Below the pieces are notes generated by a model. The model saw only the letters and a program-made list of their open reading frames with translations. It was not told where the DNA came from and did no database searches. The translations under genes and the position numbers were made by a program. A DNA stretch of 61,713 nt from Candidatus Micrarchaeota archaeon. Its GTDB lineage: Archaea > Micrarchaeota > Micrarchaeia > Burarchaeales > JBFMAP01. Positions 2,408 to 51,654 of this stretch are shown in pieces. Numbering within the stretch: position 1 is the first letter of the stretch; the number at the start of each line of letters is the position of its first letter. The stretch covers positions 1 to 61,713 of the forward strand of contig CAZWEI010000002.1 of the NCBI GenBank assembly GCA_964632135.1, written 5' to 3'.

Positions 2408-4888
2408 ATGTCCTTTCAGTCTTTACATTATCAGCCTGGAGCTGAAGCAGTGCAAACTCAAGGGGTAGCTGCGCGTCTAGCCTTTGAGAGGCACAAGAAA
2501 GTAGCGGACAAACTCCGAGGCGTGCGGATGGGTGTGGCCGGCGATGTAGGAGAGGAACTTACAAATCTGACGCAAATCGCACGCGCACTAGCTCAACATA
2601 TAACGAAAGACAGGACGTTTGAAAACGGACAGTTTAACATCGAGCTTGTTGGGGATTTGGGGAAACCTCCGAAGGAACTTGTAACTGATACTGTCAGACT
2701 TCTTGTGCTTGGTGGGGAGAAGTATTATCCGGTGGGGTATGGTGTAAAATCAATACCCTCGACTGCATGGGAGGGTTTGGCAAAACTTGGCAGCGTGTCC
2801 CGTACTGAATCGTATAGGCTAGGGCTCAGTCGAGAGAAGTTGCTGGAGAGGTTGGGTGAAATTGAAACGGAAATCGACGAATTGAAAAAGAAAAAAACCA
2901 AAACGGATAAAACTAGTGGCGAGTTCCTTGAAAATACGGTTGGGCTTGTCAGGGCTCTGCGTGAGCGCGCCGAGGTTGTGGAGGAGATACGACGTATAGC
3001 CACAAACATGCGTGTTAAAGGTGCGGACATAGACGCGCATCTGAGTGAGATAAACAGAATCGCTAGAGAGTTGTCCATAAAGATGGATGGCAGTGTAAAC
3101 CCGAGTATAGAAAACCATAAAGAAAAAATGAGGAAAGTGGTGGAACATTCGTGGCCTATTGATTTGAGAGATATCAAACCGCTTTTATACGCCGTCAACA
3201 ACATCGGAAAAGAAGAAGAAAAGCTCGAGAAACTGAAGAAACTGGAAACATTCACAAACGCGTATTTGGACATAGAGGAGAGGAACCTTGGCCGGGATCA
3301 TCTGACGGGAATGAGCAGGCGTGTCGCCAATTTGATAGACGCGTTTGAGATAGAGTGCGAATGCTACCAGAATTGCATTCAGAACCTGCACCAGCAGTGC
3401 ATACAGGATAGACTGCTGGTATTCGTGGGGGATAAACTGGACACCCTTGGAAAGCAGGTTGGGGGGATTAGGAAAAAAATAAACGCCTTGGAGGAGTTGG
3501 CAGCAGAAACAAGTTTGGAGGAGAGATTTGAGCTCCTCTACGAAATAGCAAAGCTTCGGTCTGCATTGTTGAAGAGCGTTTATGATTTGTATAATGAAAC
3601 GTGGAAATTGAGCAAGGATAAACGCCGAGAAAAGAAGTATGGGTATATTCTAGACGAACTGAGTAGAATTTTCTTGGGGTTCGCGTCCGTCACTCCGGAC
3701 AAGGAAATGAAGTTGTGGGAGGGCGTTCTCGGTGATTTTGGTAGAGAATTAAAGAAAACGAGAAAGTTGCGTTATTTGAAAAAGAAGATAAAGGCATATA
3801 ACGCTCACCTAAAAAGCGCAGGGCCTCTTGAGACGGAAATAAAGAGAGAGTATGTGGGCTCTAGGGGCGTGTGGAAGGGAGAAATAAAGACGCTCAAGAC
3901 GGAGCTGGAGACCGCGATAAATAACTTAAAGGAAGACGCACCGATTTTGGGTTATTGCCTGACGACGGCAAACCGCGAGTTACAGCTACACAGCCAACAC
4001 AAGCTAAGGAGACGCCTACACGAAGATGCTAGAGTATATATCACACCTGAGAAGATGGCAGAGGCGCTGTATTTGGCCGTAAATGTGAGTGAAAAAAGCG
4101 AAATAACGCATTTGCAGGATAGGCTGGTCTCGTGCAATGAAAAGATAGGGGTCCTTTTTGAAAAAATAGGGGTTGATTTCTGGAATTGGGCCCGTAACTA
4201 CGAGCACATATACGGGGAACAGACGCTGTTTGACACGGTATGGTCTGATATTATGCATAAAAAAACGGAGAAAACAATACGTGTCAGATATGAACCTAGA
4301 GTCATGGATGGCGTGCGTGGCGTTATGCTCTCCTCTGAGGTTATACCCGAGCTTTTTGTTCCATTCACTGGCCGTCCAAGCACAGAAGTTATCAATAGTG
4401 CCAACATCCTTCATGGGGTTAAGGATCAGGCGATAGGGGATAAAGTTCCCCTCGAATGGTTGGATGCAAGTCTAGAGGCCTATGGAAAAGGCAGATACGC
4501 GCGGTTTGTGGATTTCGTGTCTAACAACTTAGAAGAGCACAGCAAGACGCACGAAAAACTTGTTAAAAACGAAAATGATCTTTTGATTCTAGTTTCCCTA
4601 GCAAGCAGAAGGTTGCTCAATGGATTTACAACCGCGGATTTTGGAGAGAGCCCGCCGATGATTTTGGGTGGGGAGAACACCTTCGAACAAATAATGCGAA
4701 CGCGGGTGTTGAAAGACAAATACAAGTACGATCTTCTCTCGCTAGAAGCCGAGAAGTTCTGCATGGTAGGACTTGTTTCGTGCGTTCTGGATGAAGTACA
4801 CAGGCGCATAAATAGCAGTATTGCTGATGGCCTTAATACGATTTCGAAGAGGCTTGATAGGATGCGTGAGGATGTTGCAGATGCCTAG
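2408..4888 (+). CDS. Large (826 aa) predominantly helical/coiled-coil protein, function unknown
   Basis: Uninterrupted ORF with long K/E/L-rich heptad-like stretches. No P-loop or other catalytic motif was recognised by eye. A TATA-like tttatatatc lies 23-32 nt upstream of the ATG. Confidence 0.7.
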   Translation: MSFQSLHYQPGAEAVQTQGVAARLAFERHKKVADKLRGVRMGVAGDVGEELTNLTQIARALAQHITKDRTFENGQFNIELVGDLGKPPKELVTDTVRLLVLGGEKYYPVGYGVKSIPSTAWEGLAKLGSVSRTESYRLGLSREKLLERLGEIETEIDELKKKKTKTDKTSGEFLENTVGLVRALRERAEVVEEIRRIATNMRVKGADIDAHLSEINRIARELSIKMDGSVNPSIENHKEKMRKVVEHSWPIDLRDIKPLLYAVNNIGKEEEKLEKLKKLETFTNAYLDIEERNLGRDHLTGMSRRVANLIDAFEIECECYQNCIQNLHQQCIQDRLLVFVGDKLDTLGKQVGGIRKKINALEELAAETSLEERFELLYEIAKLRSALLKSVYDLYNETWKLSKDKRREKKYGYILDELSRIFLGFASVTPDKEMKLWEGVLGDFGRELKKTRKLRYLKKKIKAYNAHLKSAGPLETEIKREYVGSRGVWKGEIKTLKTELETAINNLKEDAPILGYCLTTANRELQLHSQHKLRRRLHEDARVYITPEKMAEALYLAVNVSEKSEITHLQDRLVSCNEKIGVLFEKIGVDFWNWARNYEHIYGEQTLFDTVWSDIMHKKTEKTIRVRYEPRVMDGVRGVMLSSEVIPELFVPFTGRPSTEVINSANILHGVKDQAIGDKVPLEWLDASLEAYGKGRYARFVDFVSNNLEEHSKTHEKLVKNENDLLILVSLASRRLLNGFTTADFGESPPMILGGENTFEQIMRTRVLKDKYKYDLLSLEAEKFCMVGLVSCVLDEVHRRINSSIADGLNTISKRLDRMREDVADA

Positions 4889-5529: not shown

Positions 5530-5548
5530 GGCGATGGCACGCGTGACT

Positions 5549-5599
5549 GATTTGCGCATGCGCGCAAATGGTCCATTTTTCGCGGAGGCGAAAAATTGG
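5549..5599. repeat. Double-hairpin palindromic element, copy a
   Basis: gATTTGCGC-atg-cGCGCAAATGG t CCATTTTTCGC-ggag-GCGAAAAATTGG. Same architecture as the copies at 5800, 22692, 40140, 50996 and 51444. Confidence 0.75.
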
Positions 5600-5625
5600 A
5601 AGGAAAACGACGCGGATTTTATTTG

Positions 5626-5862
5626 ATGGTGTTCGGCGTGCTCCTCGTTATTTTCGGCTTGAGGATGTACATGGACCCGCGCATTTTTGTCATTCTTCTC
5701 GGCGTGGTGTTTTATCTGATTGGTGTAGATAACTACCTTCTAGCGAATTTCAAGGAAAGCATAATTGAAGAGGTCAGGGGCGAGCTCGGGAAGAAAAAGG
5801 CGCAATTTTTGCTACGCAAAAATGCGCATTTGCGCGGAGCGCAAATTGCGCGCGAAAGATAG
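5626..5862 (+). CDS. Small two-TM membrane protein, with its C-terminal tail encoded by a palindromic element
   Basis: ORF 5596..5862. The TTG at 5596 lies inside repeat copy a, so ATG 5626 (MVFGVLLVIFGL) is preferred. There are two hydrophobic spans. The last ~19 aa (AQFLLRKNAHLRGAQIARER) are read from repeat copy b. Confidence 0.4.
   Translation: MVFGVLLVIFGLRMYMDPRIFVILLGVVFYLIGVDNYLLANFKESIIEEVRGELGKKKAQFLLRKNAHLRGAQIARER
5800..5854. repeat. Double-hairpin palindromic element, copy b
   Basis: GCGCAATTTTTGC-tac-GCAAAAATGCGC followed by ATTTGCGC-gga-GCGCAAAT. The 39-nt stretch 5815-5853 matches 22762-22800 apart from 2 compensatory differences. Confidence 0.8.
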
Positions 5863-6978: not shown

Positions 6979-7908
6979 TTAAATTTGGAACCGTTTTACT
7001 GCGTACAGATCTCGTGTGTCAAATATTATAACCCACGGCGAGTCTGGTTTTGGATCGTTTCCAACTGCAACGCACGTGCTCGCGTCTATGTTTATTTTGA
7101 ACACTCCAGAGTATTCAACAGTCCAGTGCATATGGCCGCTGAGCGTGAGGAGTGGCTGGAGATGAAGAATGAAATCGTAAATCGCCTGGCTGCCTGCGTG
7201 ATTTTTATCATCCGCAAAATCAATTGCCTCATCGCCTTTGCCCAACGGCGGCGCGTGGAAAACATAAATTGTGTTCTTGGGGTCTTTTGTGTAAAGCTCC
7301 TGCTCGAGATGTTTGCCTATGCTCAAACTATCGTGAAGGTGGAACTGCATCCTAACCAAATCGCTTCCTTCGCTTTTGTATCCCTCGACAGGAACGCCAT
7401 CGAGATAAAGTTTTGTGGAATAGGCGCCTAAATCGTGCGGCGGGTCTGGTTTTTCCCAATCCTTGAAACGAATGGCGTCTGGATGAGAGATGGGCACATA
7501 GGAACAGCCGACGATGCGCCGATTGTTGATGTGCGCATCCTTGTCATGCAAAAGATGGAAGACCTTGCCGTCGACTTCCTTGTCCTTGAGCAGTTCGAGA
7601 TGCGATTTCGCATCGTCGTTCCCAAGCATCAGCAGTATTTTGCGGTCCTTGTTTTTCTCGTGGAAGCGTATTAGAAGCGGGAGAAGTTCGTTTTCCAAGA
7701 ACGCACGCTGTCTAGTTATCAGTTTGCTGTTTTCCACGCGTGCCGGCTTCCCCACAAGCTGGCCGCTTCCTATGTTCTTCGGGAGGAGGTCGCCGCCAAA
7801 AATGAAGGCCGCGAGGTCGTTTTTCCGCATGTAGTCAAGCGAGCGCAGGAATTGCTCTAGGTTGCCGTGGTTGTCAGAAGTAAAACCTACCCGCATGCGT
7901 TGTCTCAT
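6979..7908 (-). CDS. Calcineurin-like metallophosphoesterase
   Basis: 309-aa ORF with the motifs FTSDNHG, GGDLLPKN, LGNDD and SGHMH in the canonical order. Confidence 0.85.
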   Translation of the reverse strand: MRQRMRVGFTSDNHGNLEQFLRSLDYMRKNDLAAFIFGGDLLPKNIGSGQLVGKPARVENSKLITRQRAFLENELLPLLIRFHEKNKDRKILLMLGNDDAKSHLELLKDKEVDGKVFHLLHDKDAHINNRRIVGCSYVPISHPDAIRFKDWEKPDPPHDLGAYSTKLYLDGVPVEGYKSEGSDLVRMQFHLHDSLSIGKHLEQELYTKDPKNTIYVFHAPPLGKGDEAIDFADDKNHAGSQAIYDFILHLQPLLTLSGHMHWTVEYSGVFKINIDASTCVAVGNDPKPDSPWVIIFDTRDLYAVKRFQI

Positions 7909-8049: not shown

Positions 8050-9219
8050 GTGTCCGAGGAGAGGGATGTTGAGTATCTCATAGGGCTCGTGAGAAGCAGG
8101 GATAAGTGGAAACAGTTGGACGCCATTGTTGGAGCCGAGGAACTAAACAAGAGGTACGGGCGAGGCGCAATGAGCGTGGTTGGCGAGGCGATTGCAAATT
8201 ATGCAGGCGGGGAAGTTTTGAAAAACGCGATGTACGCGGGCATTGAAATCGGGGGCTCGGAAGCTGCCGAGATATTTGCGAGCTTACTACGGAACCCGGA
8301 CATAAACGTCGCGATGGTTGGCGAGATGGGCCTTATGGGGCTTGCGGCAAAGGCTGCGGAGCAGGGCGATCTCGAAACGATGAAGACGATTTTGACTGTG
8401 ATTGGCAGGACATTTTTCGATGAAAGGCGGAAGGACATGCTCGCAATTTATAATTCTTTTGAGATTGGTGGGGTCCTTGAGGAGTTAAAAACGAAGCCGA
8501 GCAGCGAAAAGACAATGGAGGCGGTTTCTGAGTTCGTTCGGAAGGTTAAGGAAAAACTAGCTGGCGGGAACGAGAAGGAGCACCTCAAGGAGATAGGAGA
8601 AGCCAAAAACGTTGATGATTTGATCGAAGTGGTCCTCATAATCTTGAAAAAGCCTGCTGGCGCGAGCGTTTTGGACGCGATCGTCGAGGCGGTTGCTGAA
8701 AAGGCCGACGGGAAGACAAAGGAAATTTTTGAAAAAATGAGTACGGAGCAAGACCCTCGGGTTGCAGCAATGGCTTGCCTGTGCCTTGCTGGAATCGCCG
8801 CACGAGACGGGAGCGGTCTGTTTGTGGACAAATATTTGAAAGCCGCTGGAGAGAAGATGAAGAACTTGAACGATGAGTTCGGCAGCGTAAAGGAGATGGG
8901 CGAAAGGATTCTGTTCAGATATTTGCTGAATTGCGGTGAAGAGGATTTAACGGCCGTAAAGGACAAGGAAACTGCTAAAACGTTTGTGAGTGTGTTCAAC
9001 GTTTTGGGGATGGCGAACCCGAGGAGTGGCGGAAGCAGTAAGGATAAAGAACGCTATTCGGAGCTGAAGAGAATCGCCGATGATTTGAGATTTGCAGTAT
9101 TGGGCGGGGCGAGCGCCGGCGAGATAGTCGAAAAAATAGAGAAGTTTGTAAAGGCACGCGGGCTACGAGAAGAAAAGAAGGGCAGTTCGCGGGCTGGACT
9201 TATGAAAGGGGCGGGCTGA
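8050..9219 (+). CDS. HEAT/ARM-like helical repeat protein (hypothetical)
   Basis: 389-aa ORF with a GTG start after GGAGTGGTTTT. It contains alpha-helical repeats. The C-terminal half (DPRVAAMACLCLAGIAARDG...ILFRYLL...SKDKERYSELKRIADDLRFAVLGG) is paralogous to the gene at 11697..12401. Confidence 0.65.
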   Translation: MSEERDVEYLIGLVRSRDKWKQLDAIVGAEELNKRYGRGAMSVVGEAIANYAGGEVLKNAMYAGIEIGGSEAAEIFASLLRNPDINVAMVGEMGLMGLAAKAAEQGDLETMKTILTVIGRTFFDERRKDMLAIYNSFEIGGVLEELKTKPSSEKTMEAVSEFVRKVKEKLAGGNEKEHLKEIGEAKNVDDLIEVVLIILKKPAGASVLDAIVEAVAEKADGKTKEIFEKMSTEQDPRVAAMACLCLAGIAARDGSGLFVDKYLKAAGEKMKNLNDEFGSVKEMGERILFRYLLNCGEEDLTAVKDKETAKTFVSVFNVLGMANPRSGGSSKDKERYSELKRIADDLRFAVLGGASAGEIVEKIEKFVKARGLREEKKGSSRAGLMKGAG

Positions 9220-9838: not shown

Positions 9839-10552
9839 ATGAACTTGAGAGCGGTTAACCGTTGCCTTCAGCTCGCTGCCAGCGGCATCGAGACCGAACA
9901 GCTCAGCGCCATCAGAGAAGCTAGGGGGTTTACTGGCGAGCATCCCTTCGCTGTTTTTGCAACTGTTACGAAGCAACCCGCAAATGAGAAGGTTTTGGAG
10001 GAAGTTGTGAAGGCGGCCGTGGGGGTTGGCGGCTTTCACGCGACCAACATGTTTGAGGTATTAGGCAACGACGAAAAGTGGAGGGGCGCGTGTGTTGCGG
10101 GGTTGTTTCTACTTGCTGAAAGATACGCACGGGAATTGGGGCGCAGGAGCATTGACACTAATTTTGATGCACTTGAGAGAATATTGGGCTACAATGCGTT
10201 GTATCGGACCAAAGAGTATAGAGACCTAGTTGACCGGGTGGACCATATATTTTATCTCTACAACGCACAAAGAATTTTAGGTGAGTTGGAGCGTGGTTTG
10301 TCTGCGCAATCCCCTGTGTTCGACTTTGACCACTATTTTACGGCTTTTTTATTGGCTGTACATCGAGCTAAAGAGGAGGGCACGCCGGCGTTGGATAGGG
10401 CAGATGAAACGGTCCGCGCGGAGGTTTACGCTAAAACTGAAGAATTTGAGTTGGTTTATCGTGGAAAGAAGAGAATTGAGGAAGTTTTCAAAACCGTGCC
10501 AAGAGGACTGAACGCGAGGCGGGCTAGGAAGCGAGAGGGTATAACGACGTAG
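9839..10552 (+). CDS. Hypothetical protein
   Basis: 237-aa ORF. An SD-like ggagagaaaggtga lies upstream of the ATG. No motif was recognised. Confidence 0.55.
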   Translation: MNLRAVNRCLQLAASGIETEQLSAIREARGFTGEHPFAVFATVTKQPANEKVLEEVVKAAVGVGGFHATNMFEVLGNDEKWRGACVAGLFLLAERYARELGRRSIDTNFDALERILGYNALYRTKEYRDLVDRVDHIFYLYNAQRILGELERGLSAQSPVFDFDHYFTAFLLAVHRAKEEGTPALDRADETVRAEVYAKTEEFELVYRGKKRIEEVFKTVPRGLNARRARKREGITT

Positions 10553-12401: not shown

Positions 12402-12436
12402 AAAAACCACCTTGTAGAATAAGTAATAGTTTATGC
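12402..12436 (-). promoter_or_regulatory. Shared promoter/5'UTR module
   Basis: The minus strand reads gcataaactattacttattctacaaggtggttttt, followed by the GTG. Confidence 0.45.
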
Positions 12437-12465
12437 ATGAACGGATTTATATTACTTGCGCGCGA

Positions 12466-14727
12466 CTAAACCGAGCGCAACTCTGCTTCGACGAAGTCCT
12501 TGAATTTTTGCATCCAAATTGGCTCCACGTCTTTGTAATCGATCGAGCCGTTCTCCTGCTCCTTTTCAGCGAGGAGGAGGTTCGCCTCCGAGTTGCATTT
12601 GAGCACGAAATCTATTTCCGTGAGTTGCGGCGCGTTGAGCGCGTTCGAAGCCTTCGCTATGTCCGAGTAAATCTTGCCCTTGAAAAATGCCTGGAGTATG
12701 TTTTGAAGCGGGGTGAGGCCTGCCTCCTCGCTGCGGCGCTGGAGGACCGGGGGTATGTAGTTCACGTTCAGGTTTTCCTCGAGACTCGCGATGCTCGTGT
12801 TGCTCAGCGACCACGCGGACGCCTCGGGGTTCGCGATGAAGTTGCATTGAAGAGAGGAGGTTTCTGGCGAAGTGCCGCGCTTGTACGTGAAAAGTTCTAT
12901 GAACTGGCGGCGCTCTGCGTCGGTTTCGAGGAGTTGCGCGAGAACGCGGTGGACTGGTCCTCTTCGCTTGAATTTTATTTTTTTCAGGAATGAGAAGCGC
13001 TCTGTTGTGAAAAGCGAGGCAGCAGGAACGCCGAAAACAGTCTCGAGGCGGTCCTGAACGTCCTTTATGCTCTGGCCGTGGAGGTTGTAAAGACAGAAAA
13101 CGCCGGTTTGCGTGTTGAGCAGATTGATGAGCCCCTGTATCGCGAGGCGAGAGCGGAGCTCGTTCACGATGAGGCAGGAGTCGCCCATTCTCAGCGAGGC
13201 GTTCGCCATTGTGAGAAGAGACAGTTCTTTCGAGGATTCTGCTTCCTGATCAGAACTTTGAACGTGCATCGCGCCTATGTGGAACCCGCGCTTCCGGTAC
13301 GCGCGCACAGGAATCTCCTCTATGTCCTGAATCGGGAGTATGCGTTTCTTCGTGCCGATGGAGATTATTTTCGCTGCCGTAAACGCGGTTTTTCCAACTC
13401 CTTTCAAGCCGAGAACTGCTTCGGAGCAGCCGAGGCCGACCATCAAATCGTCGTAGCCAGCGTAGAACGGCGTGAGGCTGCAGAGCTGGATGTACTGTGG
13501 GTACGTGAATGGCGTTTCCTTGTTGACGCGGATTGCGAGTTGGAGTTCGCCGAAAGTCGCGGGCGGGCCCTGTATGTGGCAGCGCAGCCCGAGGCGGTTG
13601 AACATCGTGTCGAGAATCGGGTTCTTGAAATCGAACCTGCGCGATTCTTTCATCGTTGCCGCGATGTTGTGGACCGCGCGCTCCAGAAGTTCCTTGTTGT
13701 ATCTCCAGAGCGTGTGGCACAAACCGAACTTCGCGTGTTCGATGTAGATTGGCGAGTTCTCGCTGTCGAGATAGATGTCGGTTATGTTGTTCCTGTCGAG
13801 CGCCATGTTTTCAATCGGGCTTCCGAGACCGACGACCCAGTTCGCCGCCTCCCTGCCCATCGCCATCGCCTCCTGGAGGGAAAGCGGAACGCCCTGCGTG
13901 GCGGCCATGTCGATGAATTGCTGGCGGTACGCGCGCACCTTAGCATCATACGCAGCCGCGGGGTCTATAACCTCCTCGCGAGAGGACATCCCCACGTCTA
14001 TCGCCTGTTTGAGCATTTTCTGCAGTTGCGGTGAGAGGCTCTGGATGAGGCTGTTCTCGTGTGTGTAGAGGTTCGCCTCGGATTTTTCGAGCGAGTAGAG
14101 TTTTGCGGTTATTCCAAACCCCAAATCATAAACCGCGCCAGGCTCTGTCAATGGTTTTGCATCGGGCGGGAGTTCGAACATCAGCGAGTCGATGAACTGG
14201 AAACTCTTCAGCCCCGCAAGCGAGGCGAACGCCGCGCGCACGTCCTTGTATTTTGAAACGAGTTTGTAGAACTCCGTCGAGGAAATTTTTTCGGAGACGT
14301 TTGCGAGATATGTGGAGAATTTGTGATAGCCGTCCATGAAAATGCCTTTCGTCGGCTCTGGCTCGTGGTAGTCTTTTATCATCTGGAGCGTGAGGACTGG
14401 GCTCATGAAAAGCGCTTCGAACATTTTTTCCAGGAATTTCTTCCGTATGGGGTGGTAGTCGTCTTCCTTGCGGCCGTATGATGCTGGATCGGACATGACG
14501 CGCTCGACTTCGCGGATCAGGTTTGCGTATTCCATTATTACGCGCGTCTTTTCCTCGTTGAACTCGATTATTGTTTCCTCCTCGTATCGCATCGTCTTGA
14601 TGTCGACGTCGGTGAGCATGCTGAGGTCGTGGAGCTGGCTGTTAATGCATTTCGCGCTGAACATCTCGAAAGGGCAGGAGGCGCAGTCCATTACCGCGCG
14701 CGTCCCCTGTACCGAGAGCTTGCACAT
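12466..14727 (-). CDS. Type II/IV secretion (PilB/VirB11/ArlI-family) ATPase, long form
   Basis: 753-aa ORF with Walker A GLKGVGKT, the RMGDSCLIVNELRS (Asp/Walker B box region) and TGVFCLYNLHG (His box). It has a long N-terminal extension with a Cys cluster (CASCPFEMFSAKC). Confidence 0.85.
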   Translation of the reverse strand: MCKLSVQGTRAVMDCASCPFEMFSAKCINSQLHDLSMLTDVDIKTMRYEEETIIEFNEEKTRVIMEYANLIREVERVMSDPASYGRKEDDYHPIRKKFLEKMFEALFMSPVLTLQMIKDYHEPEPTKGIFMDGYHKFSTYLANVSEKISSTEFYKLVSKYKDVRAAFASLAGLKSFQFIDSLMFELPPDAKPLTEPGAVYDLGFGITAKLYSLEKSEANLYTHENSLIQSLSPQLQKMLKQAIDVGMSSREEVIDPAAAYDAKVRAYRQQFIDMAATQGVPLSLQEAMAMGREAANWVVGLGSPIENMALDRNNITDIYLDSENSPIYIEHAKFGLCHTLWRYNKELLERAVHNIAATMKESRRFDFKNPILDTMFNRLGLRCHIQGPPATFGELQLAIRVNKETPFTYPQYIQLCSLTPFYAGYDDLMVGLGCSEAVLGLKGVGKTAFTAAKIISIGTKKRILPIQDIEEIPVRAYRKRGFHIGAMHVQSSDQEAESSKELSLLTMANASLRMGDSCLIVNELRSRLAIQGLINLLNTQTGVFCLYNLHGQSIKDVQDRLETVFGVPAASLFTTERFSFLKKIKFKRRGPVHRVLAQLLETDAERRQFIELFTYKRGTSPETSSLQCNFIANPEASAWSLSNTSIASLEENLNVNYIPPVLQRRSEEAGLTPLQNILQAFFKGKIYSDIAKASNALNAPQLTEIDFVLKCNSEANLLLAEKEQENGSIDYKDVEPIWMQKFKDFVEAELRSV

Positions 14728-17902: not shown

Positions 17903-17998
17903 TAGCGGGGGCTGGATTTGAACCAACGATCTCTGGGTTATGAGCCCAGCGGGCACTCCATGCTACCCCTAGGGTGCTGTAAACAGCAATACCCCGCT
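17903..17998 (-). tRNA. Initiator tRNA-Met (CAT) with a ~20-nt insertion (putative intron) between the acceptor stem and D-arm
   Basis: The minus strand reads AGCGGGG TA [TTGCTGTTTACAGCACCCTA] GGGGTAGCATGGAGTGCCCG CTGGG-CTCATAA-CCCAG AGATC GTTGG-TTCAAAT-CCAGC CCCCGCT A. It has the A1:U72 pair and GGG/CCC anticodon stem typical of archaeal initiators. The gene is 96 nt, and an oligo-T run follows the 3' end. Confidence 0.8.
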
Positions 17999-21450: not shown

Positions 21451-22824
21451 ATGACCCAGATGGAACTTGCAAAAAGAGGCGTCGCCACCCCCGAGGCCAA
21501 GGCGATAGCAAAAAAAGAAAAGATAAATTTAGACAAACTCGCGCGTTCCATCGCGCGTGGCCGAGCGGTCGTTCTTTCTAGTGGCGTTTTTGTTTGTGGC
21601 GTTGGCGAAAGACTTGCAACGAAGATTAACGCGAACATCGGCGCGTCCCCGGATTACGTCAACGTAAAGGAAGAAATTAAAAAATTAAAAACCGCGGTTG
21701 CCGCTGGCGCAGACACCGTGATGGACCTCAGCATCGCCGGCCCGCTCGACGACATTTTGTGCGCGGTGATAAAAAATGCAAAAATTCCTGTGGGAACTGT
21801 CCCCATCTACCGGGCGGCGCTCGCAGCCACGCAACGCGGTGGAAAAATTTATGATATGAGCGAGGACGAGATGCTCGCCGCGATACAAAAACACATCAAA
21901 CTCGGCACCTCGTTTCTCACGCTCCACGCGGCGATAACGCGGGATGGCATCCGCCTCGCGAGAAAAAGGGATTTGGGGATTGTAAGCAGGGGCGGGTGCT
22001 TTCTCGCGACTTGGATGCTCCACAACAAAAAGGAAAACCCGCTCTATAAAAATTTCGACTACATTCTCGAAACGGCGCACGAAAACGACGTGGTTATAAG
22101 CATAGGCGATGCGCTCAGGCCAGGCGCGCTCAGCGACGCGAACGACGCCGCTCAAATTCACGAATTAAAAATTCAGGGCGAGCTCGCGAGGCGCGCGCAC
22201 GCGGAAAACGTCTCCGTAATCTGCGAGGGCCCGGGCCACATGCCGCTTAGCACGATCGCGCAAAACGTCGCGCTCCAGAAGCGCATCTGCAGGGGCGCGC
22301 CCTATTACGTCCTCGGCCCTCTCGTCACCGACATCGCGGTCGGCTACGACCACATAAACGCCGCGATAGGCGGCGCGCTCGCTGCAGCGGCAGGCGCGGA
22401 TTTCCTGTGCGTGGTCACCCCGAGCGAGCACGTCGCGCTTCCAACCGAAAATGACGTGCGCGAGGGCGTGATCGCCGCGAAACTCGCCGCGCACGCAGCC
22501 GACATCGTGAAACTCAAACGCTCGAAAATTGATTTTGAGATGGGGAAGGCGCGCGCGCAACTCAACTGGGCGAAACAATTCTCGCTCGCGCTCGACCCAG
22601 TGCGTGCGCGCGAGTACAAAAAAAGACGAGGCACAAAGAGCCCCGCGTGCAGCATGTGCGGGGATTTCTGCGCCATCAAACTGATGAGGAACGCGCAATT
22701 TTTGCTTCCAATTTTTCGCTTCGCGAAAAATGGACATCTTCGCGCGACGCGCGAAGCTTGTCGCAAAAATGCGCATTTGCCCGGAGGGCAAATTGCGCGC
22801 CAAACGAAACAGCAATCTTTTTAA
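21451..22824 (+). CDS. thiC: Phosphomethylpyrimidine synthase ThiC, with a repeat-encoded C-terminal extension
   Basis: Typical ThiC blocks are present (DTVMDLS, IGTVPIY, GDALRPG, EGPGHMP, YVLGPLVTDIA.GYDHI, CSMCGDFCA). The last ~40 codons are read through palindromic element copy c. Confidence 0.9.
   Translation: MTQMELAKRGVATPEAKAIAKKEKINLDKLARSIARGRAVVLSSGVFVCGVGERLATKINANIGASPDYVNVKEEIKKLKTAVAAGADTVMDLSIAGPLDDILCAVIKNAKIPVGTVPIYRAALAATQRGGKIYDMSEDEMLAAIQKHIKLGTSFLTLHAAITRDGIRLARKRDLGIVSRGGCFLATWMLHNKKENPLYKNFDYILETAHENDVVISIGDALRPGALSDANDAAQIHELKIQGELARRAHAENVSVICEGPGHMPLSTIAQNVALQKRICRGAPYYVLGPLVTDIAVGYDHINAAIGGALAAAAGADFLCVVTPSEHVALPTENDVREGVIAAKLAAHAADIVKLKRSKIDFEMGKARAQLNWAKQFSLALDPVRAREYKKRRGTKSPACSMCGDFCAIKLMRNAQFLLPIFRFAKNGHLRATREACRKNAHLPGGQIARQTKQQSF
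22692..22800. repeat. Palindromic element, copy c (nested/composite, 109 nt)
   Basis: The outer arms GCGCAATTTTTGC ... GCAAAAATGCGC enclose two extra hairpins (CCAATTTTTCGC-ttc-GCGAAAAATGG and CTTCGCGC-gac-GCGCGAAG). These are followed by ATTTGCCC-gga-GGGCAAAT. Confidence 0.8.
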
Positions 22825-23159: not shown

Positions 23160-23191
23160 ACGAACATAAAAAGAGATATAAATTTGTTCGT

Positions 23192-23224
23192 GTAAAAAAG
23201 ATTACTTGTTCTAGAGGTGGTTTT
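23192..23224 (+). promoter_or_regulatory. Shared promoter/5'UTR module
   Basis: gtaaaaaagattacttgttctagaggtggtttt precedes GTG 23225. Confidence 0.4.
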
Positions 23225-25397: not shown

Positions 25398-25512
25398 ATA
25401 AACTACTTACGCATTTGGGCGTTTGCAATTTTTGCACGCAACGCAGCGCGCGCGATTTTGTTTCCTGCGCGCCGCGGCAAACCGATCAGCAGTTTTGTTT
25501 GAAGGTGGTCGC

Positions 25513-26676
25513 ATGGGAGTTCAGTTGGAGTACATACCCGAGGAAAAAAAGGTCATAGTTTCACAACCAGAGTCAGTAAGTTCTCTGGAGAAGGGCTGCT
25601 ACGGCACGATGCATAAGGGCGTGATAACTCTTTTTCCAGAGGAAGCCCTTTACTTGATAGACATACGAAACGGCAGATGCTACGACACGCACGGGAACGA
25701 ACTGAAATTCAACGACCTCGCTGAAAAATTTCCCATTCCAAAACTTATGGCGCGCTATTTCACCTATAAAGATTGGCGCGACAGGGGGCTCGTTCTCAGG
25801 CCGATTTCAGAGGCAGAGGGAAAATACGGCAGAAGTCCGGCGAAAAAATATCCCTCGGGAAAATTCAACGCGCCCAGATACAGCATTCTCGGACTGTTCT
25901 TCCCAGAGGATTTGGTGACTGTCATTGATGACGACGTAGTGGGAAAAGAAATTTACGAGACCTATTGGCTTGGACAGTTCGGTAGTTACAAGGCAGAGCA
26001 GCGCGGGAGGCTCAGCAAGCTCGACGTGTATGAAACGCTTTTCATGATGAAGCACTGCGGGCTCGCGCTCAAGAATGCGAACGAGAGCGAGGTAATAAAG
26101 CTCGCGACAAAGCGCAGGCCGGATTTCAGGAGCATGTACAGCGTTTATGAAGATTGGAGGCTCCGCGGCTTCATTCTGAAAACCGGTTTCAAGTTCGGCA
26201 CCCACTTCCGCCTCTATTTCCCGAAGGCATCGCCGACGCGCGACGTCGATAAATGGATTCATTCAAAACACGTGATACACGTTTTCCCAAGGAGGAGCAA
26301 ACTCCTCATCTCCGAATGGGCGCGCGCAATCCGCGTAGCGCACAGCGTGAAGAAGACGTTCATACTCGCGATTCCGGGCACGACCAGCAAGAAGAAACCA
26401 GTAGAACTAGATTTTCTCCTCTACCACCGCAAGCCCGGGGGCATCGAAACCCCTAAAGAGGGAAAGCCGCGATTCCTGATGTTCTCGCTCAGCGAGGAGG
26501 AATACATCGGGGGCGCAGAACTCGCGGACGCGATAGAGGAGACGAAGAAAATTGGGCTCGAGTTGATGCTTGCGATCAGCGATAGGGAGACGAGCGTCAC
26601 ATACTACCGCGTGCGCAGGTTGGAACTCCCGGGAAGCAAGTACGAATATTACGAGATTGAGTGGGAGCAGCCATAG
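25513..26676 (+). CDS. endA: tRNA-splicing endonuclease, long single-chain multi-unit form
   Basis: ORF trimmed to ATG 25513 (387 aa). The catalytic unit is YEDWRLRGFILKTGFKFGTHFRLY...HSKHVIHVF...RVAHSVKKTFILA. It is preceded by a degenerate unit (YFTYKDWRDRGLVLRP) and followed by ~95 extra residues. Confidence 0.85.
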   Translation: MGVQLEYIPEEKKVIVSQPESVSSLEKGCYGTMHKGVITLFPEEALYLIDIRNGRCYDTHGNELKFNDLAEKFPIPKLMARYFTYKDWRDRGLVLRPISEAEGKYGRSPAKKYPSGKFNAPRYSILGLFFPEDLVTVIDDDVVGKEIYETYWLGQFGSYKAEQRGRLSKLDVYETLFMMKHCGLALKNANESEVIKLATKRRPDFRSMYSVYEDWRLRGFILKTGFKFGTHFRLYFPKASPTRDVDKWIHSKHVIHVFPRRSKLLISEWARAIRVAHSVKKTFILAIPGTTSKKKPVELDFLLYHRKPGGIETPKEGKPRFLMFSLSEEEYIGGAELADAIEETKKIGLELMLAISDRETSVTYYRVRRLELPGSKYEYYEIEWEQP

Positions 26677-33632: not shown

Positions 33633-34253
33633 TTATTCAGAAAAGTAGCTTGGCGAATGCGCGCGCGGCGTGTTGTCGTACTGGTGCCGAGGAGGGAAAT
33701 CATCAAAACCAAATGCGTTTTTCGGTGGCTTCCAGCGACCATAAATCTCATTCAAATCGCGCGAGCCTCCTCCCCCAACCTCCGCGCTTTTAGGCACAAC
33801 GCTGTTGAGAATTTTTACGGCACCCGGTTTCTTTTCACAAATACCTTTGTTGTAGATAAACGTGATATTGGTTGGCGTCGATCCGTCTTTGTTTTTAAAT
33901 GCTTTTTTATCTGCGTCATTCTCTACCAACACAAATATAGGGAGACCTCGCCCCTCTTTATATTTGAGTGCTTTACGAACAAAATTCGCGGGGTAGCCCA
34001 TCACATTAGCCGAAACAATCATAAGATTAATCGCTCCCAGCTCGGTCGATGTCAATCCAAAACCAAACGGCATATCTTCCATGCAACTTCTTACAAAGTA
34101 GGGTTCCAGTTTTCTACCCGTCAATTTCTTAATTTTTCTATATGTTCCTTTGCTACATACGAAAAAAGTTTTGATAGTACCGTCCACAACACCACCCCCA
34201 AGAACAAGTAATATCTTTTGCAGGTGCAAATTTATATTCGTTGCGCGTTTCAA
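33633..34253 (-). CDS. Pseudo-receiver protein (GG-type)
   Basis: KILLVLGGGVVDG, NLMIVSANVMGY (Ser in place of Asp), IFVLVEND and FIYNKG. The stretch looks AT-rich by eye. The start is TTG. Confidence 0.5.
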   Translation of the reverse strand: MKRATNINLHLQKILLVLGGGVVDGTIKTFFVCSKGTYRKIKKLTGRKLEPYFVRSCMEDMPFGFGLTSTELGAINLMIVSANVMGYPANFVRKALKYKEGRGLPIFVLVENDADKKAFKNKDGSTPTNITFIYNKGICEKKPGAVKILNSVVPKSAEVGGGGSRDLNEIYGRWKPPKNAFGFDDFPPRHQYDNTPRAHSPSYFSE

Positions 34254-40110: not shown

Positions 40111-40268
40111 GAGCGCAGCCACGCCGCGGCAACTGCGCTCCAATTTTTGCCTCGAGGCAAAAATGGACCATTTGCGGTGAAGCCGCAAATTGGTCGAGCG
40201 CAGTTGGTCCGCCTCGAAGCGGACCTGCCCGTTCGAACGGGCAGCCGCGTGTTGGCGGCGGCTGCGCT
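40111..40268. repeat. Nested multi-hairpin block containing palindromic element copy d
   Basis: Outer stem GAGCGCAGCC/GGCTGCGCT. Inner perfect 10-bp stem AACTGCGCTC/GAGCGCAGTT encloses CCAATTTTTGCC-tcga-GGCAAAAATGG and CCATTTGCGG-tgaa-CCGCAAATTGG (40140-40193). Three more hairpins follow: GGTCCGC-ctcgaa-GCGGACC, TGCCCG-ttcgaa-CGGGCA and GCCGC-gtgttg-GCGGC. Confidence 0.8.
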
Positions 40269-40320
40269 ATTGGGCATTTCTACCGAGCACGCTGAACGAT
40301 AACTATAAATACAAGAGAGT

Positions 40321-40361
40321 GAATAAAATAATACTTATTCTACAAACGACAGAGGGAGAAT
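40321..40361 (+). promoter_or_regulatory. Shared promoter/5'UTR module (variant)
   Basis: gaataaaataatacttattctacaaacgacagagggagaat precedes ATG 40362. Confidence 0.4.
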
Positions 40362-41713: not shown

Positions 41714-42643
41714 TTACTGTTGCGCGCCCCTGATCCAGAACCCGACCCAAAGCGGCGCTGTCGCCTCCTCGTCCGTTTTCTCTCTTTCCGCAACTGGCGA
41801 CCATCCAAATGCCGTGTTGCCGCGCCCCGTCACTTCCTCACTGCTTTTTCCGTCCGGCGCGCCCTCGTCCTTGCATTCGGAAACATAGAATGTCCTGCTC
41901 CACGGCACGTAATCGCTTTTTTCAACCTCGATCTCGTACTTTCCAGGTGCTCGCGGAACGAACTGCGCGTCTCCCTCGCCATCCGTGTAAACCACATCTT
42001 CCACGACCCACCACAAATCCTGGTGCAAAACGCCAATTCTTGCGCCGAGTATCACACGCAAATCGCGCGTTATGCTCGGCGCCCAGACGCGCTCTCCGGT
42101 ATCCTGGGTCACCGAAACGTTTACGGTTTTGTTCGTGCAGTTCCCGCTGACGTTAGCGCTGAAATGTTTTATCCTGCCCCTGCCCTCCTGCGCAGTGGTT
42201 TGGGACTGGCAGATGCTGCCAAACGAGTAGAGCGGGGGCTGCGGTGGGGGACTCAAATTCCAGTCTATATACTTGAACCCAATCACGTCCCCGTCCCTGA
42301 CTTCATACGCGCCAACGCCGACCGGCGCGTGCGCCCACGCCCCGCCTTCGACATATGAAAACCCCCAGTAATACGGGCTGTTGCAGCCAAAGCAGTTGTC
42401 AGTCCCGCACCCGACGGCGCCTATCTTGCAAAGTGCCTTGCCCCACATGGGATCGTCCAGCATGACCGCGCCAAAACCAGAATTCTGGATTATGTCAGCA
42501 GCGCTCGCGCTGCCGGAATAATCGACGCATTTCGTCACCACGTTCGCGTCGTCAAAAGACACCACCAGGGCGGCCCTGCCGCCGCCGACCAGCGCCGCGG
42601 CGGACACAACGCAGAGCAGCGCAGCCAGCATCCATTTTTTCAA
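41714..42643 (-). CDS. Secreted DUF4430-like protein with a C-terminal beta-sandwich domain
   Basis: Signal peptide. YWGFSYVEGGAWAHAPVGVGAYEVRDGDVIGFKY matches the DUF4430 (transcobalamin-like) hallmark. DGEGDAQFVPRAPGKYEIEVEKSDY is PEGA/CarbopepD_reg-like. Confidence 0.6.
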   Translation of the reverse strand: MKKWMLAALLCVVSAAALVGGGRAALVVSFDDANVVTKCVDYSGSASAADIIQNSGFGAVMLDDPMWGKALCKIGAVGCGTDNCFGCNSPYYWGFSYVEGGAWAHAPVGVGAYEVRDGDVIGFKYIDWNLSPPPQPPLYSFGSICQSQTTAQEGRGRIKHFSANVSGNCTNKTVNVSVTQDTGERVWAPSITRDLRVILGARIGVLHQDLWWVVEDVVYTDGEGDAQFVPRAPGKYEIEVEKSDYVPWSRTFYVSECKDEGAPDGKSSEEVTGRGNTAFGWSPVAEREKTDEEATAPLWVGFWIRGAQQ

Positions 42644-42711
42644 ATAAACGCACCCTTGCCTTGTGGATGCGCTGACAACTTTATAAACCTGCCGCGGTTC
42701 ATAAATAAAAC

Positions 42712-43116
42712 ATGCAAAACATGCGCACCGAATCCGCGCCCGACGTCAAGGAGCGAATCGAAAGGATACTGCGCGCGCTGGAATTCGACCACATCAACCA
42801 ATACAGAATCATATGCATGCGAAGCAGGGGCAGCAAGGCCCGCGCGTATGCGCGCGTGTGGAACCTGCCCTCAATCTGGCAGAAGGCGCTTGACGTGCGC
42901 GCCTATTACATCATCGAGGTTCTCTCCGAGCATTTCGACAAACTCGGCGAGGAGCAGAAGGAGAAGGTGCTCATCCACGAACTTCTCCACATCCCGAAAA
43001 CGTTCAGCGGCGCGCTCGTGCCGCACCTGTGCTTCGGGAAGAGGATAGACAACGCGCGCGTGGAGTCTCTTTACAGAAAATATAAGGAAAACTGCAACGA
43101 AAAAGAACAATTCTAG
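42712..43116 (+). CDS. Putative small zinc metallopeptidase (HExxH)
   Basis: 134 aa with LIHELLHIP (HExxH). A TATA-like ctttataaacc lies ~25-33 nt upstream. Confidence 0.55.
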   Translation: MQNMRTESAPDVKERIERILRALEFDHINQYRIICMRSRGSKARAYARVWNLPSIWQKALDVRAYYIIEVLSEHFDKLGEEQKEKVLIHELLHIPKTFSGALVPHLCFGKRIDNARVESLYRKYKENCNEKEQF

Positions 43117-50232: not shown

Positions 50233-51654
50233 TCAACAACAGTAAAGGTTTTTTGGAATCTTCCCTTCCTCGATTTCGCCGAACGGGTTTCCGTACTTCC
50301 GCACGTTTTCCATCATCTCCTTGTTCGTCTCTAGTTCGAACCCGCCCTTCACCATGCGCGCGCGGAGTTTTTTAATGAGCGCTGGAATGTCGATTTCCGC
50401 AGGGCAGTCCTCCTTGCAGCCCGAGCACGCGAGGCACAGGTACGCGCGCAAGTTGTTTTTATCGCGCGGGCTTGCTATCACGTGCGAGATGAGCCCCTTC
50501 CCACCGGCGCGCTCGAACCCGAAGAACTCCGCGAGCTGGTGGTACGAGGGGCAGGCGTTATCACAAGCACCGCAGTTTATGCAGTACATCAGTTCGCCCA
50601 ACCCCTCTCTTATCATCTCGCTCCTTCCATTGTCAAGCAGAACTAGGTAAACCTCCTTCGCGCCCTGCGCGCCGAGCACTGCTTTGTTCTGGATGTCCGC
50701 GGTCTTGCTCGGTCCGTTTATTATGCTTATGTACACCGGAGCCTCGCGCCCGGTTCCCCAGATCGCGTCGCACTTTGCGACGAGAAGCGCGTCCTCGAGC
50801 GTGGGAACGAGCTTCTCAAATCCCGCGACCACGATGTGCTTGTCAGGATAGCGCGAAACGAGCGAGATGTTTCCCTCGTTCTCGAGCACAACAATATTTC
50901 CGTCGCTCGTGAGCGCGTTCGCACCCGTTATCCCTATCTTGCTTTTCGTTATCTTCTCGCGCAAATACCCGCGCGCAAATCCAACAATCTCTTCCGCAAT
51001 TTTGCCTTCGGCAAAATGCGGCGCATTTTCGCTCCGCGAAAATTGCGCCGGTTTCGCGCTCACCTTCGCGCCGAATTTCTCCCTGAGCGCGCTCGCCATC
51101 TCCTCTGGGGTAAGATGCATCGCCGGAATTACCGGGTGTATCCCCTCAACACCGCAGACCTGCGTCAGGAAGTCGCCGAGGTCGGTTTCAACAATTTCAA
51201 CCCCGCACTCCTCCAAAAACTTGTTAAGTTCGATTTCCTTGCACGCGTTCGATTTTGATTTCACGGCAAGTTTTTCTTTCCCGATGATTCCCAGAATTAT
51301 GTCGCGCGCATCCTCCGCATCCTTCGCCTCGAGCACGCGCACGCCGTTCCTTTTGAAGTTTTCAATCGCGGTTTTTTTCAACCTCTCGATATTCTCGATT
51401 GCGCCTTTCTTTATCGCGCGCAGTTTCTCGCGCAGCGCGTCCTCCAATTTGCGCTTTGCGCAAATGGACCATTTGTCCTGCGGGACAAATTGGTCGTCAA
51501 TTTTCGCGAGTATTGCGTCCCTGTTCTCGTTGGTTTCCCTGATGACCTTTAGCATCGCCTCCCGGAATTTCTTCTTCTCCGCGAGCTGCCTCTCCACTTC
51601 TTTTACTATTTCATCCATCGCATCGCCATCCAGCCCACGAACCCATATACTCAA
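50233..51654 (-). CDS. LutB-like iron-sulfur protein (LUD domain plus 2x[4Fe-4S]) carrying two intragenic palindromic elements
   Basis: KSKSNACKEIELNKFLEECGVEIVETDLGDF, IGITGANALTSDGNIVVLENEGN, CINCGACDNACP and CLACSGCKEDCP. Confidence 0.8.
   Translation of the reverse strand: MSIWVRGLDGDAMDEIVKEVERQLAEKKKFREAMLKVIRETNENRDAILAKIDDQFVPQDKWSICAKRKLEDALREKLRAIKKGAIENIERLKKTAIENFKRNGVRVLEAKDAEDARDIILGIIGKEKLAVKSKSNACKEIELNKFLEECGVEIVETDLGDFLTQVCGVEGIHPVIPAMHLTPEEMASALREKFGAKVSAKPAQFSRSENAPHFAEGKIAEEIVGFARGYLREKITKSKIGITGANALTSDGNIVVLENEGNISLVSRYPDKHIVVAGFEKLVPTLEDALLVAKCDAIWGTGREAPVYISIINGPSKTADIQNKAVLGAQGAKEVYLVLLDNGRSEMIREGLGELMYCINCGACDNACPSYHQLAEFFGFERAGGKGLISHVIASPRDKNNLRAYLCLACSGCKEDCPAEIDIPALIKKLRARMVKGGFELETNKEMMENVRKYGNPFGEIEEGKIPKNLYCC
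50996..51049. repeat. Double-hairpin palindromic element, copy e (intragenic, 54 nt = 18 codons)
   Basis: GCAATTTTGCC-ttc-GGCAAAATGC and GGCGCATTTTCGC-tcc-GCGAAAATTGCGCC. On the minus strand it is translated as ..AQFSRSENAPHFAEGKIA.. Confidence 0.75.
51444..51493. repeat. Double-hairpin palindromic element, copy f (intragenic)
   Basis: CCAATTTGCGC-tt-tGCGCAAATGG a CCATTTGTCC-tgcg-GGACAAATTGG. On the minus strand it is translated as ..DQFVPQDKWSICAKRKL.. Confidence 0.75.

Follow-up and report, generated by a model that had tools for sequence, protein, structure and literature searches.

The 61,713-nt stretch of DNA analysed here (the window) belongs to contig CAZWEI010000002.1 of a Candidatus Micrarchaeota archaeon (assembly GCA_964632135.1) and contains thiC, the gene for phosphomethylpyrimidine synthase, which ends in an unusual tail. 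Our main result is that this tail very probably, at roughly 85%, represents a derived insertion in a functional thiC, which keeps the reading frame and is made up of a mobile palindromic repeat in two nested copies. A preliminary description of this locus had quoted the tail and the positions of its hairpins correctly, and had regarded the tail as foreign to ThiC and derived from a repeated palindromic element. This view holds: the closest relative (83% identical) and nine other orthologs all lack the tail. The same tail in repeat-free relatives, which the preliminary description had named as the observation that would speak against it, is thus not what we find.

The thiC insertion and its empty site

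Judged by the best matches of its ThiC, the organism belongs to the Micrarchaeota (DPANN archaea). The most similar ThiC (P0002, 83% amino acid identity) comes from MAG141, a Micrarchaeota assembly (GCA_040755655.1) whose thiC contig is denoted L001 and whose LUD-gene contig, considered below, is denoted L002. L001 is syntenic with the window (thiC, thioredoxin and so on) at 81-83% nucleotide identity.

The open reading frame (ORF) of thiC has a full-length match to the Pfam profile PF01964, ThiC_Rad_SAM (residues 2-413, profile positions 1-419 of 420, E = 4e-167), and carries the C-terminal CX2CX4C Fe-S motif, so that its product belongs to ThiC. The three cysteines C400, C403 and C407 are invariant in a 40-sequence alignment (A4). 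Alignments to ThiC structures in PDB end at residue 415, and about 42 further codons (QFLLPIFRFAKNGHLRATREACRKNAHLPGGQIARQTKQQSF) follow the domain. In the AlphaFold2 model, the mean predicted local distance difference test (pLDDT) score is 89, and it drops below 50 at residues 421-457, that is, over most of the inserted segment 416-449 and the whole extension behind it, past the last conserved helix. The ratio of nonsynonymous to synonymous substitution rates (dN/dS) between the window and MAG141 genes is 0.165 at a dS of 0.72, which indicates that thiC is still under purifying selection.

The origin of the tail can be read from the empty site in MAG141. In the DNA alignment (A1), L001 has a single clean 102-nt gap opposite positions ~22696-22797 of the window, and blastn places the break points at 22694/22795; the boundary can slide by about 4 nt within a flanking GCGC/GCRC repeat (GCGC/GCAC in the window/L001 alignment). 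The insertion begins 9 codons past C407 and five codons upstream of the ancestral stop. Correspondingly, P0002 ends in ...CSMCGDFCAIKLMRNARQTKQ (that is, ...LMRNARQTKQ), and the window protein ends in ...CSMCGDFCAIKLMRNA, 34 additional residues and RQTKQQSF*. Since the ancestral residues RQTKQ are encoded downstream of the element and not upstream of it, the element interrupts the coding sequence. In addition, the stop codon TAA of L001 is replaced by CAA in the window (22813-22815), and therefore three more codons (Q-S-F) are translated up to the next TAA. The preliminary description had taken the tail to be encoded entirely by the palindrome; this is right for 34 of the 42 extra codons, but five (RQTKQ) are the original C-terminus and three (QSF) result from the stop loss. 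A T5 tract, which probably serves as the native terminator of thiC, lies at 22817-22821.

In the same description, the tail was explained by read-through, in which loss of the thiC stop let translation continue into an element already present in the downstream intergenic region. The stop was indeed lost, and members of the repeat family do exist in intergenic DNA. However, the MAG141 empty site reveals a precise 102-nt in-frame insertion before the ancestral stop, with the ancestral RQTKQ codons on its far side, and the lost stop explains only three codons; we therefore regard read-through as refuted. None of the nine orthologous C-termini that we read (55-62% identity to the window ThiC) has the segment; they end 6-22 residues past the CAIK motif, and ThiC orthologs are mostly ~407-435 residues long. 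Because MAG141 and these orthologs lack the segment and most orthologs have that length, the comparison identifies the insertion-free gene as the ancestral state.

The inserted palindrome consists of one member of the family within another. It is enclosed by a perfect outer inverted repeat of 10 nt (22692-22701 with 22790-22799) and contains the hairpins CCAATTTTTCGC-ttc-GCGAAAAATGG (22708-22733), CTTCGCGCG-a-CGCGCGAAG (22738-22756) and ATTTGCCC-gga-GGGCAAAT (22775-22793). For the detection of family members, which we call modules, we constructed a covariance model, R1, trained on 21 modules with the thiC copy left out. R1 recognizes the inner part of the palindrome over its full length (38.7 bits, E ~1e-6), although this copy is absent from the model, and matches the outer module partially at 22772-22797. 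The inner module consists of hairpin A (22708-22733) and hairpin B (22735-22760, core 22738-22756). Therefore, what the preliminary description had called two additional hairpins make up a single, complete member of the family, which occupies the loop of the first hairpin of another module. The net sizes of the outer and inner modules, 48 and 54 nt, are each divisible by three.

A second copy in the window, copy b, corresponds to the thiC palindrome (copy c) with the 3-nt loop 'tac' instead of the 57-nt inner module, as had been noticed before. Over 43 nt, these copies have 93% identity, and among their differences is a compensatory one in the stem, from GCGC/GCGC to GCCC/GGGC. Compared with 200 shuffled sequences, the thiC palindrome folds with z-scores of -3.4 as RNA and -4.9/-5.0 as DNA on either strand, and none of the 200 shuffles folds as well. 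Another locus (L019) has the same unusual second hairpin as the inner module, CATCTTCG...CGAAGCTTGTCGC, and a second nested case is found in MAG141 within a Cgi121 gene (L021, 4600-4715). The earlier view that the nesting reflects repeated insertion agrees with both the full R1 match and this second case.

These data suggest the following series of events. One module (net 48 nt) would have been inserted five codons before the thiC stop, and a second module (net 54 nt) would then have been inserted into the loop of the 5' hairpin of the first; separately, the stop would have changed from TAA to CAA, adding Q-S-F. Because both insertions are multiples of three, free of stops and located after the last conserved helix, ThiC is probably still made, with an extra and presumably disordered segment of 34 residues.

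Table 1. Coordinates of the thiC locus and of repeat modules in the window
Feature	Position	Strand	Size or basis
thiC (phosphomethylpyrimidine synthase) ORF, including the insertion and the 3-codon extension	21451..22824	+	457 aa
Codons of the C-terminal Fe-S motif CSMCGDFC (C400, C403, C407)	22648..22671	+	sequence
Outer module, hairpin 1, 5' arm (GCGCAATTTTTGC)	22693..22705	+	identical to copy b, 5800-5812
In-frame 102-nt insertion relative to the MAG141 empty site, encoding Q416-A449	22696..22797	+	A1, protein ends, blastn
Inner nested module, 57 nt in place of a 3-nt loop (net +54 nt)	22706..22762	+	R1 full-length match
Outer module, hairpin 1 3' arm (22763-22774) and hairpin 2 (GCGCATTTGCCC-gga-GGGCAAATTGCGC, 22771-22798)	22763..22798	+	
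Ancestral ThiC C-terminal codons R-Q-T-K-Q, kept 3' of the insertion	22798..22812	+	identical peptide ends P0002
Former stop position CAA (TAA in MAG141), TCT TTT and present stop TAA (22822-22824)	22813..22824	+	alignment A1
Copy a, intergenic, degenerate terminal box (AAATCAG vs AAATTGG)	5545..5601	-	R1, 57.6 bits; fold
Copy b, subtype of the thiC outer module	5800..5851	+	R1; 3' end of orphan ORF 5596..5862
Module in divergent intergenic region	40138..40195	+	R1, 75.3 bits
LUD-domain / 4Fe-4S (LutB-like) gene with two in-frame modules	50233..51654	-	alignments
Module in LUD gene, 54 nt in-frame (AQFSRSENAPHFAEGKIA)	50994..51048	-	R1; alignments
Module in LUD gene, 51 nt in-frame (DQFVPQDKWSICAKRKL)	51442..51495	+	R1; only in window

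Architecture and distribution of the repeat family

A module is a pair of bulged mini-hairpins of about 50 nt in inverted orientation. The 5' unit is composed of CAATTT(T0-2), a GC-rich stem of 2-7 nt, a short loop, the complementary stem and (A0-2)AAATG; the 3' unit is composed of CATTT, stem, loop, stem and AAATTG; and a short GC centre, usually G-A-C, lies between the two. In its full form, the module reads (T)CCAATTT(TT)-GC stem-loop-stem-(AA)AAATGG, one base, CCATTT-stem-loop-stem-AAATTGG. Each unit has one bulged base, which is A for the 5' unit and T for the 3' unit, and the outermost boxes of the module are complementary to each other. The aligned modules begin with (T)CCAATTT or GCGCAATTT and finish with AAATTGG(TC) or AAATTGCGC.

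In about 203 kb of DNA from the window and its relatives, we counted 29 'CAATTT..AAATG' and 28 'CATTT..AAATTG' units, which are always adjacent in that order, and a single unbulged one. The half-module pattern CAATTT..AAATG..CATTT occurs ten times in the window against an expectation of 0.01. R1 finds seven modules there, in both orientations and at a density of about one per 9 kb: 5545-5601, 5800-5851, 22706-22762, the split outer thiC module, 40138-40195, 50994-51048 and 51442-51495. The next scores are only ~11 bits. No decayed copies are present in the window, copy a having only a degenerate terminal box.

The stems of the modules are strictly maintained. All 266 stem pairs of the 57 units (13 stem cores) are Watson-Crick pairs, without any G.T, and compensatory double changes occur at 9 of the 19 consensus pairs of the modules, the only apparent one-sided changes or breaks being traced to a misaligned row. 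Loops, meanwhile, differ among copies that have both stems in common. Because wobble pairs are absent and conservation extends to both strands, these patterns point to a constraint or maintenance that acts on the DNA level rather than purely on the RNA level.

The family has a narrow distribution. An exact-pattern scan of 185,579 species, with one genome per species, gives 21 matches, 18 of which are in three Micrarchaeota metagenome-assembled genomes (MAG141, 10; PPR_0038, 7; WY4.bin88, 1); a twin-hairpin fold is confined to these 18. The three bacterial matches (L008, L010, L020) lack hairpin complementarity and were set aside as chance. There are no family units in 80 other archaeal thiC loci (390 kb) from Joint Genome Institute (JGI) metagenome contigs, and no matches for two module patterns in IMG/VR viral contigs. 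No Rfam 15 family matches, the region's best score being 19.4 bits where the cut-off is 71.4, and such elements in Micrarchaeota or DPANN archaea are not described in the literature that we searched.

In PPR_0038 (L012, L015, L018, L022, L023), there are 5-6 near-identical copies with extended GC-rich flanks (..GCGGCGGCTC[module]GTCGGGSCGCC..), which suggests that a longer subfamily has undergone a recent burst there. In MAG141 and the window, many different stem combinations are found instead. The copies in L014 and L016 were tried as orthologous copies and rejected, since the wider alignment is non-orthologous and their common flanks of ~12 nt are those of the longer subfamily.

Palindromes are prone to assembly or amplification artefacts, for example from chimeric reads, and we found no sequencing run with this sequence; the two public runs that turned up share 4% of the sampled words each, and neither contains the organism. 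However, the family has the same conserved boxes in four independent assemblies, two of these share one identical genic insertion and the frame is kept in every verified genic case. We regard an artefact as extremely unlikely.

The surroundings of two modules deserve a brief description. The module between divergent genes belongs to an array (40124-40262) with a DNA fold z-score of -9.3, in which it lies inside an 11-bp outer stem (GCAACTGCGCT/AGCGCAGTTG) and is followed by two unrelated GC hairpins, GGTCCGC..GCGGACC and CTGCCCGTTCGAACGGGCAG. Copy b, on the other hand, forms the last ~20 codons of a small predicted membrane ORF (5596-5862, +), with the Q-F frame that is also read in thiC. In a collection of 5.8 billion proteins, this orphan ORF matched only itself, and its status as a gene is putative.

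Genic copies and competing explanations

In addition to thiC, the window contains a LUD-domain gene with two modules. This gene encodes 473 residues from its first start (TTG 51654), and the start used in relatives is an ATG at its residue 13; the real start is probably this ATG at 51618 rather than the TTG 12 codons upstream (51619-51654, minus strand). The closest orthologs have 444 and 426 residues, and most have about 421. The 54-nt module is common to the window and MAG141 and is absent in the 77%-identical L003 and the other orthologs aligned, and AlphaFold2 predicts low-confidence coil between helices at both insertion sites. MAG141 has further modules inside ORFs with the Pfam domains Ala_racemase_N, DHH, HAD and Cgi121. 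An intergenic difference is also found: L002 18149-18480 contains two modules and a GC hairpin, and the corresponding spacer of the window (42618-42736, ~118 nt) has no module and is ~213 nt shorter. With such presence and absence at orthologous sites, both intergenic and genic, the family behaves as a transposable repeat of the non-autonomous type would.

The genic copies are compatible with their host frames. All three insertions with a known empty site (102, 54 and 51 nt) are multiples of three and stop-free in the frame of the gene. Of 8 genic copies, 7 have the CAA-TTT (Q-F) frame in common, for which we estimate a binomial probability of ~0.003 at a chance of 1/3 per copy. Almost all of the six frames of the modules are open.

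This frame usage bears on the idea that the insert is removed or skipped, by bulge-helix-bulge splicing or by a translational bypass as in T4 gene 60 and mitochondrial 'byp', leaving ThiC unchanged. A compact, stable hairpin does stand between identical codons (GCG ... GCG) in thiC, and a gene for a tRNA-splicing endonuclease is nearby (25423-26676). For a segment that is removed, though, neither the lengths divisible by three, nor the lack of stops, nor the preference for the Q-F frame would be needed, and the LUD junctions have no matching take-off and landing codons. The geometry is also wrong: the outer 10-bp helix is perfect, there are only 1-nt bulges inside the hairpins, and the two 3-nt bulges separated by a 4-bp helix that define an archaeal bulge-helix-bulge intron do not appear in the predicted folds. 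We regard removal or skipping as very unlikely.

Alternatively, the hairpins could have arisen or been recruited in place as a signal of the host that is not mobile and has a regulatory or structural role, for example in stabilising mRNA 3' ends, in termination or in protein binding. The perfectly kept stems with their compensatory changes would fit such a signal, as would the identity of one module at 55 of 55 positions across genomes at dS ~0.7 and the location of the thiC and orphan-ORF copies at gene 3' ends. The T5 tracts in the modules, which lie at 22699-22703 and 22712-22716 in the thiC insert, look like the oligo-T tracts that serve as terminators in archaea. A host signal is not expected, however, amid conserved domains, where copies are found twice in the LUD gene and in the Ala_racemase_N, DHH and Cgi121 genes, nor in both orientations or with presence and absence between close relatives; the lack of any G.T among 266 pairs speaks against a purely RNA-level constraint, and no Rfam family matches. 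We consider this explanation improbable.

Several points nevertheless weigh against the interpretation of the ThiC tail as two nested insertions of a mobile repeat. The LUD module common to both genomes (window 50994-51048, L002 9685-9739) is 55/55 identical, compared with 86% identity in the remainder of the gene and 83-85% in the 60-nt flanks of the module; this is not predicted by simple decay of selfish DNA, and selection, conversion or parallel insertion may each be responsible. The junction repeats at the three empty sites are 4, 3 and 2 nt, without a fixed target-site duplication. A motif scan of all six frames in 231 kb of the window and its relatives, using regular expressions (HUH...Y), detected no HUH-Y1 protein, and none of the ten large ORFs of the window has a transposase match in Pfam (five match no Pfam profile). 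Among the JGI metagenome contigs with the ThiC C-terminal region, whose best thiC matches are only 53-69% identical and include no close relative, there is no thiC allele with the outer module only, and because of this the two-step order is taken from the nesting. Finally, translation of the thiC insert is deduced from its frame and length.

Mechanism, known repeat systems and other observations

With low confidence, we propose that a module spread in trans, moved as single-stranded hairpin DNA by a structure-specific enzyme, for which a transposase of the HUH/Y1 type is the obvious candidate. Existing hairpin loops may be preferred targets, as suggested by the nesting and by the enclosure of modules by outer stems. 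Y1 HUH transposases and REP-associated tyrosine transposases (RAYTs), where REP denotes repetitive extragenic palindromic, recognise imperfect hairpins (PMC6006769), and the conserved bulged hairpins of the modules resemble these substrates.

In behaviour, the closest precedent is that of the Rickettsia palindromic elements (RPEs), palindromic repeats of ~100-150 bp integrated in-frame in many unrelated genes (PMC10969869). Similarly to RPEs, the modules are repeated palindromes located in-frame in unrelated housekeeping genes, where they would add peptide segments; they vary in presence between related genomes and occupy sites compatible with the protein fold (for RPEs, PMC10969869). In-frame interruption of an ORF by a segment absent from its orthologs is seen in thiC (102 nt) and the LUD gene (51 and 54 nt), and also in further genic copies of MAG141. 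On the other hand, RPEs are bacterial, measure ~100-150 bp and have a conserved peptide in each family, whereas the modules are archaeal, measure 48-54 nt (a third to half of an RPE) and have two bulged mini-hairpins, variable stems and self-nesting. Size and archaeal host set them outside the named RPE families, with which similarity in sequence would not be expected.

In architecture, the closest precedent is given by the doublets of REP units, bacterial interspersed mosaic elements (BIMEs) and REP doublets forming hairpins (REPINs). REP units are imperfect palindromes with GTAG (or CGTC) at one end, some of which lie inside ORFs (PMC3733652). The modules have in common with these systems 20-40-nt imperfect palindromic units with a conserved bulge, arranged as inverted doublets (PMC3733652, PMC6006769), as well as two unit types (like Y and Z REPs), stems that vary among subfamilies by complementary changes and some copies in ORFs. 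They differ in that the aligned modules contain no GTAG or CGTC tag, that the family is not predominantly extragenic and that no RAYT was found in the motif scan of 231 kb. In a 2018 survey, RAYT classes were not observed in Archaea, where only TnpA of the IS200 type was seen (PMC6006769).

The modules can also be compared with miniature transposable elements with inverted repeats (MITEs) and palindrome-associated transposable elements (PATEs) derived from IS200/IS605, with which they share small size, non-coding and non-autonomous nature, multiple copies and terminal inverted symmetry; Sulfolobus, Halobacterium and Haloquadratum are archaea known to have MITEs (PMC10969869). However, the modules are shorter than the typical 70-300 bp, their terminal inverted repeats are only ~6-10 nt, the junction repeats give no fixed target duplication and no parent insertion sequence was found within about 200 kb of sequence from the host genomes. 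The repeat is a new family that belongs to neither the RPEs nor the REP/BIME/REPIN doublets; the kind of selfish DNA is already known, and the host is unusual.

A more speculative possibility, which we hold to be unlikely, is that the modules are the visible half of an archaeal REPIN-like system with a single-stranded DNA enzyme outside the known RAYT classes. Such an enzyme would copy bulged mini-hairpins preferentially into hairpin loops, giving rise to self-nesting, and perfect pairing of the stems would be upheld by the enzyme or by a repair process. This upkeep could account for the 266/266 pairs, the lack of decayed copies in the window and the 55/55 identity at dS ~0.7. If so, the modules would be tolerated by the host or even serve it, either as portable peptides for surface loops or as structural signals in DNA or RNA.

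For annotation, the consequence is that ~34 residues of ThiC and segments of 17-18 residues in other proteins of this lineage are repeat-encoded and should not be taken as lineage-specific domains or extended C-termini. Colonisation of genes in-frame by selfish palindromes, an oddity of Rickettsia, also occurs in small-genome DPANN archaea with a much smaller element. The family makes it possible to test the spread of structure-specific mobile DNA in archaea, the targeting of hairpin loops, the perfection of stems and the tolerance of essential enzymes such as ThiC to peptide insertion.

Outside the modules, a few other features of the window were recorded. Five ORFs have no Pfam match (E <= 0.001), including two large ones at 2408-4888 (+, 826 aa) and 12466-14727 (-, 753 aa); the others are at 8050-9219 (+, 389 aa), 6979-7908 (-, 309 aa) and 9839-10552 (+, 237 aa). 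The sole Rfam match above the gathering score is a tRNA (17907-17969, minus strand, 33.9 bits). The intergenic, AT-rich motif GAAYAAGTAWT is present in 9 copies where 2.7 would be expected, most of them upstream of genes (e.g. at 12417, 23201, 34202 and 40330), and lies inside longer common stretches (23176-23217 / 34196-34237 and 12412-12437 / 40320-40345); it may be a promoter or leader element.

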